A stretch of DNA of 29,023 bases, taken from Candidatus Hermodarchaeum yapensis. GTDB lineage: Archaea > Asgardarchaeota > Hermodarchaeia > Hermodarchaeales > Hermodarchaeaceae. The position numbers and the translations under genes were made by a program. The notes beneath the pieces were generated by a model. It was not told the origin of the DNA. It did no database searches and saw only the letters and a program-made list of their open reading frames with translations. Positions 311-10,098 of the stretch are shown here, one piece after another. The stretch lies in NCBI GenBank assembly GCA_016840405.1, contig JAEOSK010000031.1, positions 1-29,023 of the forward strand. The letters are read 5' to 3'. The first letter of the stretch is position 1. Each line of letters opens with the position of its first letter.

Positions 311-632
311 CAGTTCTGTTACTTTCTTGAAAGAAGATTAGCAGTATCTTCGTTTCAATACTGACCTCGTTGCGAGGCGGGTGCACATTTCTGCACACCT
401 CCAATAGTCGCCTATTGGCTCGGACTATATCTTACCTCATGCACTATACATGAAGTTCTGGCGTATAGTCTCTGAGGATATCTCTCCAAGTGTGTTGGAG
501 AAGATCTTTCCTGCTGATTGTCTCCACTTGTGTATTTTCAGGGGTCATTTCTCTGTCACCAGAGAAGTATCCTAACACAAGATACGCGAGAGTTTCCAGC
601 ATATAGCCAGATTTTACTAAGGCAATCTGTTC
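311..632 (-). ncRNA. Group I intron (IB-like core) in 23S rRNA at E. coli-equivalent L1931, no homing endonuclease ORF
   Basis: Interrupts TAAGGT^AGCCAAA; exon ends in U, intron ends in G; P1 AAGGU/GCCUU with U-G pair; P ATGCTGGAAAC, Q AATCAGCAGG, R TCAGAGACTATA, S AAGATATAGTCC; P3 CTGGC/GCCAG; P7 GACTAT/ATAGTC. Confidence 0.95.
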
Positions 633-860
633 ACCTTAAGAGAGTCATAGTTACTCCCGTCGTTTAACGGTGCTTAAACCCGTTGAACCGAGTCTTAACA
701 TACCGTCACTGGACAGGATTCACCGACTGTACACAGGTTTTCACCCTTGCAGTCGGCTATGTTTGTATTGAACAGATGGGCCCCCCTAGTCACTGCGACC
801 TCCAGTCCCCTGCAAGCAGAAGACCTGAGGCACCTCATCTTCCAAGGGTACGAGGCTAAT

Positions 861-899
861 TTCGACTAGTGACAGAAGGTATAGGTATTCTGAAACTAT
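861..899 (-). other. 39-nt BHB-type (EndA-spliced) intron in 23S rRNA, about E. coli 1677
   Basis: CGGC-AAA-TAGT...ACTA-GTCG-AAA; cutting after the 2nd nt of each bulge restores conserved GAACTCGGCAAATTAGCC. Confidence 0.88.
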
Positions 900-1963
900 T
901 TGCCGAGTTCCCTCGCCTACTGTAACCCGAAACGCCTGAGCCTACTCAGCTAGGGGCACCTGTGTCGGTTCTGGGTACGATCACGGGGGCTCCTTCCCGA
1001 TTACTTTTTCAGTGGATCCAGGACTTTGCGATACCCACCTTATACGGTAGGCCATTCCTGAGTTTGCCTGCTTCTCACCGTTACGGTACTCCACAGGTGT
1101 ATACAGTTAGATAGGGCGAAAACCCTACATCACATATCCCAAACCGTCAGTAATCGGGCTTGCGTTGCCGCATGTACCTCCGTGGCACAGGAATAAGAAC
1201 CTGTTTCCCTTTCGATCGACGCATCTTAAGCTAGACCTTAGGATCGGCTGACTCTCGGCTGACGACGCATTGCCGAGAAACCCTTGCCCCTTCGGCGACC
1301 AGGATTCTCACCTGGCTTTGCTGTTACTACTACCGGGATCTGCAATACTAATCGGTCCACTGGACCTCACGGCCCAGCTTCCGTCCAATCAGTACGCCTC
1401 CCTACCAGTAACACCTTACGATGTTCTCCGGGGTATCGGTAGCTGGCTTGAGCCCCGTCCATTTTCAGGGCCCACAACCTCGGCAAGTGAGCTGTTACGC
1501 TTTCCTTGGAAGATGGCTGCTTCTAAGCCTACCTCCTTGCTGTTTTTGGCTGCGGACGCCTTTCAGTTTAACACTTAGCCAGCATTTAGGGACCTTAACC
1601 TCGGTTAGGGTTGTTCCCCTTTCGGCCGTGTGGCTTAACCACACGCGCCCGTCTCTGATCGTCTACGACGTCGGCAGGTTCGGAGTTTGAGAACTAAGCG
1701 AGGGCTTCCGCCCCCATACTTACTAGTCAGTGCTCTACCCCACCGACAATCTCGGATCAGGCTAGGCTGCGACCTACTTCGGGAGGAACCAGCTATCACC
1801 CCGCTAGATTGGTCTTTTGCCCCTAACCCCAGGTCATGCAAGCGAATTGCATATCAGAACTGCTACAGGCCTCCACCACGGTTTCCCGTGGCTTCACCTT
1901 GCCCAGGGCTAGATCGCGGGGTTTCTGGTGTTATACGGGTGACTACAGGCCGATTAAGACCTC

Positions 1964-2082
1964 GTCCCTGCCAAAGTCCCTTACTCGGTACTTGTGGCCC
2001 GACTGACCCGAAGGTCTGAACTACCCGCCGAAGCAGGTAGCCTCGAACGCACTTTCGCGAGCAGGTGCTCTCCGTTGTGGAC
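1964..2082 (-). other. Enlarged LSU expansion segment (ES9 / helix 31 region), ~120 nt
   Basis: Extra GC-rich multi-hairpin sequence between conserved flanks; two cUUCGg tetraloop hairpins (2005-2016, 2021-2040); no BHB ends seen. Confidence 0.75.
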
Positions 2083-2156
2083 TGTTGGTTTCCCTTCGCC
2101 TCCGACGTTCGATCGCGTCTTAGGCTTGCCACACGCATAAACTCCCCGGCCCGTGT

Positions 2157-2189
2157 TTCTCGTCAACGAGGAAGAATTCCTCGATTGAT
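2157..2189 (-). other. 33-nt BHB-type intron in 23S rRNA, about E. coli 572
   Basis: CTCG-AAA-TCAA...TTGA-CGAG-AAA; removal restores conserved CCGTCTCGAAACACGG. Confidence 0.9.
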
Positions 2190-3019
2190 TTCGAGACGGA
2201 TGACATGACGCTGGTCCCCTCCACTCCTACTACCCGATTGCTCGGGGTTCGTTTGCGGAGGATCCATCCTTTGACGCCATGTCCAACTGTAACCACTTGG
2301 TTTCAGGCGCTTTGCACCTCCCTTCCGGGGTGCTTTTCAACTTTCCCTCACGGTACTAGTGCACTATCGGTCTTGGGACGTATTTAGGGTTGGGAATCGA
2401 TGCTTCCCAGCTTCCTACGGGATTTCCAACCCGCAGTACTCAGGGACTCCAGCCCAATGCCTTCTGCGTTGTGCCTACGGGGCTATCACCCTCTGTGGCA
2501 AAACTTTCCAGGATCTTTTGGCTTCCGCAGTGAGACAGCGGCTGGGCCCTACAACACCACATCTCCACGTGGTTATCCCACGCGGATTCAGTTTGCCCTT
2601 TTCCCTTTTCGCTCGCCGTTACTCAGGGAATCTCATTTGATTTCTTTTCCTACCCCTAGTAAGATGTTTCAGTTCGGGGTGTTCCCGCTCCTACGAAAGG
2701 AGCGACGCACATTATTAGCGTACGCCAGGAAGTCCTATTCAGCGATCTGTGGATAAAGCTACTTGCGCCACCCCACAGCTTATCGCAGCTTGTCACGGCC
2801 TTCTTCGGCGCCCAAGCCAAGTCATCCACCAAGTGGCGTAGTTATGTTGACACTACTTGGAACCCACACTGATTCTGACTGGCGTTATCCAGGGTATGCG
2901 ACCTTTGCATGGCCATCATCGTGAAGACCTAACGAGAAGAAAGTCCTCCTAGGCCCGACACCCATATGCACGACATACGGGCTGAAATTGTTGGTAAAAA
3001 GGAGGGACGCACATTGAGC

Positions 3020-5467: not shown

Positions 5468-6484
5468 ATGTCAACAGAAACGCGGAAAGTACAGTTAACC
5501 GGCGGTGCTACATACATCGTTTCCCTTCCAAAGCAGTGGGCTGAGAAGGCAGGGTTGAAGCCGGGTAGCGAGCTGCAGCTAGTCCCCCAAGATCGGTATT
5601 CGTTGCACCTTTACACTGCATCCTCCCCAGAAGCAGCATCGCTGTCGAAGAGCACAGTAGATATTTTACCTGATTTACCAACCGAGGATATCGTACGGAA
5701 TTTCATCACCCAATATTTGGCAGGATTTGATATCATTCAATTAGATTTACAGCACATGAATGCTGATCAACGGGTGACAGTGAAAGATACGATCCGTCGA
5801 TTGATGATAGGAGCAGAGATTATCTCAGAGACCACCAATAAGCTCGTGGTGCAATGTTTTTTAGGGCAGGCGAACTTGCCGTTGTTAAATGCACTGGAAC
5901 GAATGGAGGCATTAGTACGCTCTATGCAGCATGATGCCGTGAAGGCACTATTAGAGGGAGATACGCCTTTAGCAGAAGAAGTAGTGCAACGCGATCCAGA
6001 AGTTGATAGGTTTTACTTCTATATTGTCCGACAATTAACTGCAGCTGTAGGACGGACTGATCGGATTCGACAAATTGGCTTATCAAGCCCACAAGCCTGT
6101 TTGGGTTATCGGCTTGTTGTGAAAAGCATTGAACGAGCAGGAGATCATGCAGCACGGCTTGCTTCTATTGCTGCGTCAACAAAGCTTCCTGATGGTTCAC
6201 CATTGGGAAACACGTTCATGAAGATGCATCAAATATCGGACAAGGTTTTCCAAGACTCTTTGATTACCCTTCGAAATTTGGATGTTCCATTAGCTCATGA
6301 AACCATTCGTCGCGTTGAAAGTGTTGTGCAACAAGAAGACAAAGGAATCAGAGCTCTGCTTGGTGGAAAGTTTCCAGTAGAAGCGGTATTGAATCTTCGG
6401 TTAGGTTTGGAGAGTCTTAGGCGAATAGCAGAATATGGTTCTGACATCGCAGAAACGTCAATTAACTTATCTGTCGAAAGATAA
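5468..6484 (+). CDS. AbrB-domain / PhoU-family phosphate uptake regulator
   Basis: N-terminal RKVQLTGGATYIVSLPKQW, PhoU repeats with EVDR, IERAGDHA, LRRIAEYGSDIAE; SD GGTGAGG. Confidence 0.9.
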   Translation: MSTETRKVQLTGGATYIVSLPKQWAEKAGLKPGSELQLVPQDRYSLHLYTASSPEAASLSKSTVDILPDLPTEDIVRNFITQYLAGFDIIQLDLQHMNADQRVTVKDTIRRLMIGAEIISETTNKLVVQCFLGQANLPLLNALERMEALVRSMQHDAVKALLEGDTPLAEEVVQRDPEVDRFYFYIVRQLTAAVGRTDRIRQIGLSSPQACLGYRLVVKSIERAGDHAARLASIAASTKLPDGSPLGNTFMKMHQISDKVFQDSLITLRNLDVPLAHETIRRVESVVQQEDKGIRALLGGKFPVEAVLNLRLGLESLRRIAEYGSDIAETSINLSVER

Positions 6485-6498
6485 CCTCTGATATGACA

Positions 6499-7032
6499 TT
6501 AAATGTCAAATTGAATGCCACAATACGCACAAAATCGGGCATCCTCGTCGTTTTCCGTTTGACATCTTGGGCAGAGTATAGAGGGAGCTGTTTCATCTGT
6601 GTCATCGAATATCTCTTGCATTGGTGATGTTTCTGTAAGATGGATTTCATTGATGGCTTTAGCAGAGGTATAAATTGGGCTCCAAAGGATTCGTTTATTG
6701 TCTTTTGTTCCATGAGTTGGGCAGTCTAATAAGACAACGGTGAAATGACCTTTGATGCCCGCTTTTTTTGGTTGAGCTGGGTTCCCACAGGTATTACACC
6801 GGAAGAGACGATTTCCGGCTGCCCCAATCCATTCTGTAAGGCGACTGTAGGGTAAAAAAAGCCGGCGAACCCTTCGATGAACAGGGCAGCGGACATAGGC
6901 GGCCAACGGTTGAAGCTCTTTGTTTTTTGAGACTTGGACCTCGTCGACCTTGAGAAGAATATATGGGCGCCCACAGGGACAAGTTAAAGCCCCTTCCCAA
7001 GCGACATCGCCTTCAGATTCCGGGATAGTTAT
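6499..7032 (-). CDS. Multi-zinc-binding protein (two Cxx(C)...CPxH modules plus C-terminal zinc ribbon); probable ATA start
   Basis: Frame open 42 codons upstream of the called TTG (6906), adding CPCG that pairs with CPVH; second module CNTC...CPTH; CPRC..CAYC ribbon; GGAGG 8 nt before ATA. Confidence 0.75.
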   Translation of the reverse strand: MTIPESEGDVAWEGALTCPCGRPYILLKVDEVQVSKNKELQPLAAYVRCPVHRRVRRLFLPYSRLTEWIGAAGNRLFRCNTCGNPAQPKKAGIKGHFTVVLLDCPTHGTKDNKRILWSPIYTSAKAINEIHLTETSPMQEIFDDTDETAPSILCPRCQTENDEDARFCAYCGIQFDI

Positions 7033-7066
7033 TGTGGGTTCCTCCTTGCTAGTTCATGAGTTGAGA

Positions 7067-7080
7067 TACTTAAGGTTTGG
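7067..7080 (-). promoter_or_regulatory. BRE-TATA promoter of the zinc protein gene
   Basis: Minus strand CCAAACCTTAAGTA, same CCTTAAGTA box as the 23S promoter. Confidence 0.6.
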
Positions 7081-7087
7081 TGACTCA

Positions 7088-7891
7088 TCAGGGGGGTTTT
7101 CGAAATATGAGAATATATTCATGGATTTTGTTTACGCGAAATGTGGTTGGATAGCCGAGGGGGCGGAGGTTATGATACTCTTTCCTTCGATCCCAGATGA
7201 TGATGTCTTCGAGTTGGAATCCTTCAGTGGTCCATTGGTCAACGCAATCAATGTGGAAAGGATAGAATTTATTTTTCTTTCGAAGATCCATGACAATGAG
7301 ACCACACCAGTGACCTGGTTTGAGTGCAACCAGGAGCTGTTTTGCCACAGTGCCCAGTGCTTTTAGAAATTCGGAATAAACTGAGATGTTCCCCATATCA
7401 TTCGGAGAAGTAGTATAGGGTCGTGGTGTTTTTCCGTCTGCTGTTCGCCGTTGTTGATGAACATCCCAATAGGGAGGTGATGTCACTACGAGATCTATAC
7501 TATTATCGGAGATAACCTTAGAGAGTTCACGTGCGTCTTCACAGAAAATTTGGGATTTTTCACGGTTTGGTGCTACTGCGGATAATCGTTTTTGAGCTAT
7601 ATCGATATATTGTGGAGAAATTTCCAGACCAATACCTTGTCGTCCCAATTCCTTAGCGGCAACTAATGTGCTTCCTGTGCCCATGAATGGATCAAGAACG
7701 ACATCTCCAGGTTTAGTATAAATCTCTAATAATCGTGTTACAAGTTGTTTAGGAAATAGCGCTGGATGTCGTAGACGTGACTCCTCAGAACCTTTCTTGA
7801 CATCCCATATGCTAATCGAATAGCGCGTCCAAGTTTTCCCATCCAAGGCATTGAGCCGGTTTATCTGGGATTTGCCTTTTTTCTTAGGCGT
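7088..7891 (-). CDS. Orphan amino (N4C-type) DNA methyltransferase; probable ACG start
   Basis: HPALFP, DPFMGTGS (motif I) before TSPPY (motif IV), HEYILIFRK; frame extends 15 codons above the called TTG to ACG, 7 nt after GGGGTG. Confidence 0.85.
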   Translation of the reverse strand, partial: TPKKKGKSQINRLNALDGKTWTRYSISIWDVKKGSEESRLRHPALFPKQLVTRLLEIYTKPGDVVLDPFMGTGSTLVAAKELGRQGIGLEISPQYIDIAQKRLSAVAPNREKSQIFCEDARELSKVISDNSIDLVVTSPPYWDVHQQRRTADGKTPRPYTTSPNDMGNISVYSEFLKALGTVAKQLLVALKPGHWCGLIVMDLRKKNKFYPFHIDCVDQWTTEGFQLEDIIIWDRRKEYHNLRPLGYPTTFRVNKIHEYILIFRKPP

Positions 7892-9697: not shown

Positions 9698-10098
9698 TGT
9701 GGTTCAGAGATAAAGGACGGCTGCCGGTAGTTCCTGAAGAGGAAATGCTGAGGAAGCTCCGTTCTCCCTTAGGCAACGGTACGGCGAAAGCTGTAAGGCG
9801 AGAGCCTTGCTCTGGGAACAGAAACGACACGCCCAGCGTCGATATGACGATGATGCAGTAGAGGGCCAACTATCAGTTGTGTCCAAGCGTCGTGTTGGTA
9901 ACAATACGATGGTTAACCTGTTGAGGATGGCGTTGGAACCGTTGAAACGGTCCATCACCGTGGGAGCAAGCCCAAATAGGCCGCCAATGAGGAGCCTACT
10001 GAGGTGGCGGGTAGGGTGCTTAGCTAGATGCCGTCAAGCGATTCAAGGCAACTTGAATGGCTGAACAAAAGATGGGCTATTCTTATTACTGAACCACA
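9698..10098 (+). ncRNA. rnpB: RNase P RNA, archaeal type A
   Basis: P1 TGTGGTTCAG/CTGAACCACA; CR-I GAGGAAGCTCC; AACAGAAACG and TTGAAACGG S-domain motifs; GGAGCAAG; GCTTAGCTAGATG; CR-V AACAAAAGATGGGCTA; upstream GAAACATATA box. Confidence 0.95.

Follow-up and report, generated by a model that had tools for sequence, protein, structure and literature searches.

An endonuclease-less group I intron of the L1931 family in the 23S rRNA gene of a Hermod-type Asgard archaeon

Group I introns of archaea were catalogued by Nawrocki et al. (2018), who reported 39 of them, 27 being of the IB4 type; LSU/1931 is the commonest archaeal IB4 site, LSU/1923 is the other main site, and some of these introns share their gene with bulge-helix-bulge (BHB) introns (PMC6125680). 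None of the tabulated archaeal hosts is an Asgard archaeon, and one contig binned as Lokiarchaeota was rejected as bacterial (PMC6125680). Outside the archaea, Haugen et al. (2007) described the L1931 introns of Thermotoga, Simkania, Synechococcus, and organelles as lacking P2, having a complex P5, and carrying LAGLIDADG genes (PMC1995217). In contrast, group I introns of nuclear rRNA genes belong mainly to subgroups IC1 and IE, their endonucleases are all of the His-Cys type, and each site is occupied by its own lineage (PMC3679873). In the literature that we searched, no published description of group I introns in Asgard archaea was found.

Here, we analyzed a contig of 29,023 nucleotides assigned to Candidatus Hermodarchaeum yapensis (JAEOSK010000031.1, assembly GCA_016840405.1; the whole stretch is called the window below), whose minus strand carries a 322-nt insert in a 23S rRNA gene. 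Its closest described counterparts are the ORF-less Woesearchaeota introns IB4.2 to IB4.5, which likewise occupy LSU/1931 of archaeal 23S rRNA and measure about 280-400 nt, although the hosts of the described archaeal IB4 introns at LSU/1931 belong to phyla other than Asgard (PMC6125680). The bacterial and organellar L1931 introns, including those of green-algal organelles and Acanthamoeba mitochondria, reach 650-700 nt and hold a single-motif LAGLIDADG gene, which the window intron lacks, whereas its missing P2 and branched P5 are consistent with the description by Haugen et al. (PMC1995217). The Tetrahymena intron Tth.L1925 and the nuclear IC1/IE introns would be expected to use a like chemistry, with a G-C pair by a bulged A in P7, and Tth.L1925 lies 6 nt away; however, Tth.L1925 and the nuclear IC1 introns have P2/P2.1, a His-Cys endonuclease, and another site, and the window intron differs from them in all of these features (PMC3679873). 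A specific sequence relationship between the window intron and Tth.L1925 or the nuclear IC1/IE introns was not seen. As argued below, 311-632 (-) is highly likely to represent a functional group I intron without an endonuclease gene, which belongs to the cross-domain L1931 family and interrupts the 23S rRNA of a Hermod-type archaeon.

Site, fold, and covariation of the insert

The minus strand of positions 1-2853 corresponds to model positions 1-2340 of the archaeal 23S rRNA, with the contig end cutting the gene (Table 1). Aligned to the LSU model, this region showed a single large insert, which separates ...CUCUUAAGGU from AGCCAAAUGCC, and a second LSU-model scan, covering 1-760, again returned one large insert (CUCUUA[325]G--AGCCAAAU). 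On the strand itself, the letters at the junctions are ...GGGAGUAACUAUGACUCUCUUAAGGU followed by GAACAGAUUGCC at the 5' splice site and ...AACAGAACUG followed by AGCCAAAUGCCUUG at the 3' splice site. The 5' exon ends in a U (633), the intron runs from its first nucleotide at 632 to a terminal guanosine at 311, and the 3' exon opens directly afterwards with an A (310), reading AGCCAAAU. Since the U of UAAGGU corresponds to nucleotide 1931 of rrlH in E. coli K-12, the insert lies between U1931 and A1932. The boundaries 311-632 and the site L1931, both proposed by an earlier sequence-only reading of the window, are thus exact, with the LSU alignment and direct reading of the strand giving the same 322 nt.

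The upstream part of the 23S rRNA holds two small inserts besides the L1931 intron. The first, of about 39 nt at 861-899 (-), had been called a BHB micro-intron in the sequence-only reading; contigs without it, in which loose ends connect about 862 with 902, were seen in RNA run X17 as well as in DNA run X3, and the latter indicates that insert-free alleles or relatives exist as DNA. The second, at about 2155-2188 (-) in domain II of the 23S rRNA, adds 34 nt to the archaeal LSU model and is probably another small intron.

Identification as a group I intron came from a match to the Rfam family RF00028 (Intron_gpI) at 401-663 (-), which spans the full model (1-253) with 70.0 bits (E value, 4.6e-16), above the gathering score of 50 bits. 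The match stops after P9, the other 90 nt (311-400) being taken up by the hairpins P9.1 to P9.3 and the tail. The intron strand folds with a minimum free energy of -103.5 kcal/mol (z = -5.5 against shuffled sequences), and the full set of helices from P1 to P9.3, including the P3/P7 pseudoknot and the P4-P6 scaffold, could be placed on it (Table 1). The P5 region is branched (P5, P5a, P5a', and P5b), P2 is absent, as in the L1931 family, with a 6-nt joiner leading from P1 to P3, and P10 is weak, with 2-3 bp. The G-C pair by the bulged A of P7 is presumably the guanosine-binding site and agrees with the P7 G-C pair reported in PMC3679873. Every structural element that the sequence-only reading had named was recovered: group I identity (by the covariance model), a complete core (P3, P4, P5/5a/5b, P6, P7, P8, and P9), the U-G pair in P1 at the splice site, the terminal G, and a P9 region of several hairpins.

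Table 1. Coordinates of the 23S rRNA exons and of the elements of the intron in the window
Feature	Position	Strand	Evidence or remark
23S rRNA, 5' part	633..2853	(-)	RF02540 LSU_rRNA_archaea, 1975.9 bits, model 1-2340
Group I intron, 322 nt, after U1931	311..632	(-)	LSU-alignment insert, RF00028, covariation, E. coli numbering
23S rRNA 3' exon from A1932, to contig end	1..310	(-)	LSU alignment to model 2340
P1 exon strand UAAGGU, U1931 in U.G pair	633..638	(-)	Exon and guide covary in two bacterial relatives
P1 internal guide sequence GCCUUA	618..623	(-)	Placed on sequence, 10-sequence alignment
P3 5' strand UCUGGC, partner 457-462 GCCAGA	606..611	(-)	100% paired in 10 sequences
P4-P5-P5a-P5b scaffold arm	512..601	(-)	Folding, placement, alignment
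P4	596-601/512-517	(-)	UGCUGG/UCAGCA
P5	588-591/521-524	(-)	Placed on sequence
P5a	575-581/527-533	(-)	Placed on sequence
P5b hairpin, GUGA loop	549-566	(-)	Compensatory U-A to C-G relative to G007
P6/P6a/P6b hairpin, 5-nt loop	476..511	(-)	LAGLIDADG gene of relatives sits at this loop
P7 5' strand G-A(bulge)-GACUA, partner 422-427 UAGUCC	466..472	(-)	Invariant in 10 sequences
P3 3' strand GCCAGA	457..462	(-)	10-intron alignment
P8 hairpin	435..455	(-)	7/7 pairs differ on both sides, 93.8% paired
J8/7 (UAAGAUA) and P7 3' strand UAGUCC	422..434	(-)	Placement, alignment
P9 hairpin, GCGA tetraloop	401..418	(-)	100% paired, 6/7 pairs covary
P9.1 (380-399, GAAA loop), P9.2 (365-377), P9.3 (327-358)	327..399	(-)	Folding, placement, alignment
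3' tail GAAAGUAACAGAACUG, terminal G at 311	311..326	(-)	Motif GUAACA(N3-5)G common to most L1931 relatives

The fold was further examined in an alignment of ten ORF-less L1931 introns (two from Asgard, two from DPANN, and six from bacterial genomes; MAFFT with a hand-projected structure). In this alignment, 85.8% of the cells were paired, compared to 69.8 ± 1.0% in shuffled controls and 37-46% with the partner slid by 1-3 columns, and 54 of the 98 pairs changed on both sides; none of 500 shuffles reached any of the five measures. These controls somewhat overstate the contrast, because the aligned introns are related and the window sequence itself supplied the structure, but the gap to the slid controls is still large; misalignment of some P5, P6a, and P9.x columns lowers the paired percentages rather than raising them. 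Covariation is strong in P3 (three of six pairs differ on both sides), P8, and P9. P1 is 93% paired and follows the exon variants of two bacterial relatives (CUAUGGU/GCCAUA and CUACGGU/GCCGUA). P4, P6, and P7 are invariant across the ten introns and therefore add no covariation support.

Two further features of the sequence stood out. The tail AGUAACA(N3-5)G and a start RAACA are conserved in most L1931 introns of both domains (besides 311-326 (-), examples are the introns at loci L003, L023, L027, L057, L064, and L071), and the tail motif may represent a P9.0/P10-like or a tertiary contact. In addition, the internal loop UUAGG/CCUGAA, within 539-574 (-), looks by eye like an 11-nt GAAA-tetraloop receptor; the corresponding strand reads CCUAAA in the orthologous intron of genome G007 (see below) and in the Woesearchaeota intron, and the loop of P9.1 is a conserved GAAA, so that the two might possibly form a tertiary clamp.

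Relatives and history of the intron

The core of the window intron, CAGAGACUAUACGC...GAUAUAGUC, is common to many introns of bacterial metagenome-assembled genomes (MAGs). As an exact two-part pattern, it was matched in more than 119 GTDB species genomes, which span numerous phyla of bacteria and archaea; hosts among the matches listed include CPR and many other bacterial phyla, DPANN, Bathyarchaeia, Nitrososphaerota, Methanosarcinales, and Jordarchaeia. Together with the rank of LSU/1931 as the commonest site among the 27 archaeal IB4-type introns (PMC6125680), this speaks against the earlier description of such introns as uncommon in archaea. We extracted 22 L1931 introns (that of the window and 21 relatives), leaving out L020, L040, L069, and L113 as wrongly extracted. 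Over about 270 shared columns, identity to the window intron was 90% for genome G007, 74% for Woesearchaeota, 64% for Methanosarcinales, and 52-62% for the rest, so that homology to 20 bacterial and archaeal L1931 introns, at 52-74%, can be aligned across the whole ribozyme. The Woesearchaeota intron (L003; 267 shared columns) has matching helices, including P9.1 to P9.3. Homology to introns that Nawrocki et al. found with IB4 would place the window intron in this subgroup. In a quick tree from this sample, which is biased by the search pattern, the window intron grouped with the G007, Woesearchaeota, and Methanosarcinales copies, and these archaeal copies were nested among bacterial and DPANN L1931 introns.

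The nearest relative, in G007 (Promethearchaeota archaeon DZ2M.271; JBHLMI010000021.1), shares site, flanks, and architecture with the window intron and is its ortholog (86% identical; RF00028, 61.6 bits). It is shorter, with 300 nt compared to 322 nt, and has shorter P6b, P8, and P9.3 elements. The changes between the two copies are located in loops or keep the pairing, as in the U-A to C-G exchange in P5b and the rebuilt P6a/b; P8 is shortened to a hairpin with a GCAA loop, and P9.1 is still paired despite four changed positions.

Relatives of 660-980 nt hold a single-motif LAGLIDADG ORF, the bulk of which lies in the loop of P6, after intron nucleotide 138, where the Hermodarchaeum intron has a loop of 5 nt. 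The longest ORF within the window intron encodes 52 amino acids without a family signal, in line with the earlier claim that an endonuclease ORF is lacking. We rejected this ORF (intron nucleotides 31-189) as a gene: its start lies in the invariant AUGCUGG of J3/4-P4, and although it is also open in G007, all four of the differences in its first 33 codons are nonsynonymous. Because the P6 loop is the place of the LAGLIDADG gene in relatives, the Hermodarchaeum copy would be an "all-ribozyme" form, which may represent a later stage in a cycle of invasion, loss of the homing endonuclease gene (HEG), and intron loss, or may have been acquired without the HEG.

How long the intron has been resident can be judged from the host family, in which 3 of 19 genomes contain this region of the 23S rRNA (G017, G007, and the bin of the window). 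G017, from the sister genus, has no intron from L1923 to L1931. The same bin as the window contains a second 23S fragment (contig C60, locus L002; model positions 1587-2987), which is 88-98% identical to the window 23S rRNA in the overlap and carries a different group I intron (701 nt; coordinates 457-1149) after U1923, 8 nt upstream of L1931. The ribozyme core of this intron is visibly related to that of the window intron, and its ORF (576-1052) encodes a single-motif LAGLIDADG protein of 158 amino acids (Pfam, 1e-18) with I-CeuI among its PDB relatives. Downstream, the flank of C60 matches contig C40 of G007 and not the 23S-bearing contig C20 of that genome; the two 23S sequences of the bin may represent two rrn loci or co-binned strains. 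In combination, the intronless sister genus, the L1923 intron of C60, and the relatives outside Asgard archaea argue for an optional, mobile element. Judged from these sequence comparisons, the L1931 intron is an optional, horizontally circulating, HEG-less element and not an old resident, which the sequence-only reading had considered possible.

Of 151 Asgard genomes searched with RF00028, seven gave matches, which exceeded the threshold in five. Two further Asgard 23S introns of group I lie at other sites, one near E. coli position ~1780 (114.9 bits) and one near ~2552 (114.2 bits), on contigs G147:C242 (L131; 1501-1787) and G060:C46 (L132; 1501-1831). In addition, a Jordarchaeia MAG (JAHAWU010000004.1, L112) contains an L1923-type group I intron at about 6430-7240.

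It is tempting to read the same observations as traces of an intron that Asgard archaea have inherited vertically since ancient times and that is relevant to how nuclear rRNA group I introns arose, given that a copy without a HEG does not home by itself, that the intron is present in two species of one genus, and that the 23S rRNA of other Asgard families contains group I introns too. However, those introns occupy other sites, the sister genus lacks an intron at this one, the bin itself offers a different intron 8 nt upstream, and the nearest outside relatives are found in Woesearchaeota and Methanosarcinales, nested among bacterial and DPANN copies. Moreover, nuclear introns form their own family at each site, with subgroups IC1/IE and His-Cys endonucleases (PMC3679873), whereas the window intron has no P2 and the ORFs of its bacterial, organellar, and archaeal family are of the LAGLIDADG type. 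We consider such an ancient origin very unlikely. Since the L1931 intron belongs to a LAGLIDADG-associated family of prokaryotes and organelles and is optional among close relatives, it has no bearing on the origin of nuclear introns, and the relevance that the sequence-only reading had seen there is not supported.

Transcripts, host, and assembly

Intron and exons have similar depths in DNA, but not in RNA. In the independent DNA run X3, the intron unitig has a depth of 34, compared to 26-36 for exon unitigs identical to the window. In the metatranscriptome runs X7 and X8, which come from another study, the window-identical exon unitig 648-715 reaches 3155 and 2742, compared to 18.3 and 18.6 for the intron unitig, a ~150-170-fold excess, with these RNA data being short assembled contigs and the depths coarse per-contig means. 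Both runs lack RNA coverage in bins 1-44 and 1101-1144. One RNA contig stops at 310 and continues with ACCUUAAGA (plus strand), which is the sequence of ligated exons. As a hint, these depths fit an efficient removal of the intron with a trace of precursor, while DNA carry-over could explain the intron-containing contigs. Since relatives have almost the same flanking exons, the exon excess and the 9-nt ligated-exon end are not specific to Hermodarchaeum. The "skip" joints 307>633 and 310>639 of run X17 were rejected as splicing events, since they have other letters at the junction and sides shorter than 30 nt, and were attributed to other organisms.

The far greater depth of exon over intron unitigs in RNA, at about equal depths in DNA, argues against decay of the intron into a relic that no longer splices, in a 23S copy that is dead or redundant. 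Such a relic might be suspected from the contig end that cuts the 23S rRNA, the second 23S fragment in the bin, and the loss of any HEG, but all core elements are intact and agree with the family consensus, the differences in G007 preserve pairing, and the exons match their counterparts in relatives at 97% identity. A relic is slightly less probable again than an ancient Asgard intron.

The host of the intron-bearing 23S rRNA is a Hermod-type Asgard archaeon, as the sequence-only reading had proposed for the Asgard level. The 23S rRNA scores best with the archaeal model, and the contig continues into 26 kb with an archaeal RNase P RNA and typical archaeal genes, among them a Hef helicase-nuclease that is 94-96% identical to proteins of MAGs labeled Odinarchaeota or Promethearchaeota, compared to 64-77% for Hermodarchaeota MAGs. 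The RNase P RNA, at 9705-10091 (+), scores 166 bits and measures 387 nt compared to the 288 positions of the model, with several inserts of 10-44 nt. Contig C67 of the sister-genus genome G017 is syntenic, with the 23S rRNA followed by the same flanking genes.

The intron could also stem from an assembly chimera or from a misbinned bacterial or DPANN rRNA fragment, as with the Lokiarchaeota-binned contig rejected by Nawrocki et al. (PMC6125680), and the contig of the window ends 310 nt past the intron in a bin with 4.4% contamination. Breaks recur in this region: four contigs from three related MAGs break inside the 23S rRNA near 1923-1931 (position 1 of the window, the end of G007:C20, 37 nt upstream of the intron, the start of C60, and the start of G017:C67), which suggests that these 23S assemblies are fragmented by differences in intron content within the populations. 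Farther downstream, the 23S rRNA of G007 has an insert of ~600 nt where C60 has 82 nt. Nonetheless, contigs without a single difference span both exon-intron junctions in several independent runs (DNA run X3, 281-622; RNA runs X7 and X8, 281-662), so that the concern about a chimera that had been raised for the window was checked against both DNA and RNA assemblies, and the G007 ortholog, together with its 3' exon, is found at one end of a contig of 46.9 kb. These contigs, the contiguous Asgard genes, the synteny with G017:C67, and the G007 ortholog make a chimera or misbinning very unlikely. As to a BHB intron cut by the archaeal splicing endonuclease, for which one might cite the small inserts in the same 23S rRNA, its probability is close to negligible, given that the splice sites show no bulge-4 bp-bulge motif, that the junction duplex (-12.5 kcal/mol) is unexceptional next to shuffled sequences (-10.3 ± 3.2 kcal/mol; 48 of 200 as good), and that the group I fold has all its parts and shows covariation.

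Expected splicing and meaning for Asgard rRNA genes

As a member of the L1931 family, the intron would be expected to catalyze its own removal. In the pre-rRNA, the guide GCCUUA would pair with the exon end UAAGGU to form P1 with its U1931.G pair, and a free guanosine, held at the G-C pair of P7, would attack after U1931. The terminal G (311) would then occupy the guanosine site, and the freed 3'-OH of U1931 would attack before A1932, joining the exons (CUUAAGGU-AGCCAAAU), which would make the H69-H71 region of the ribosome whole again. The core is likely braced by the P4-P6 arm with its branched P5 and by four P9 hairpins with GNRA loops. The intron is optional within the host family and inherited within at least one genus.

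In short, the intron is a typical and well-preserved representative of a known family, without a HEG, and the observation is well above chance. What is new is the host group only, as the L1931 family is already catalogued in other archaea and in bacteria; its host range is now widened to Asgard archaea, which were absent from the 2018 catalogue (PMC6125680). Nothing ties the Hermodarchaeum L1931 intron to the origin of nuclear introns.

The wider picture is one to which we give slightly better than even chances: that the window intron, the L1923 intron of C60, and the introns in three other Asgard families are the first documented group I introns of Asgard archaea, that they belong to a mobile-ribozyme pool shared with DPANN and CPR, and that one pre-23S rRNA needs both ribozyme and BHB splicing. 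If true, Asgard rRNA genes would draw on a cross-domain pool of mobile ribozymes that also serves DPANN archaea and CPR bacteria, and a single Asgard pre-23S rRNA would depend on both a ribozyme and an endonuclease for its splicing. As a practical warning, assemblies of Asgard rRNA genes are fragmented near the intron hotspot at 1923-1931. For the lineage itself, ribozyme- and protein-spliced introns in one rRNA gene would add to the picture of an unusually intron-rich group.
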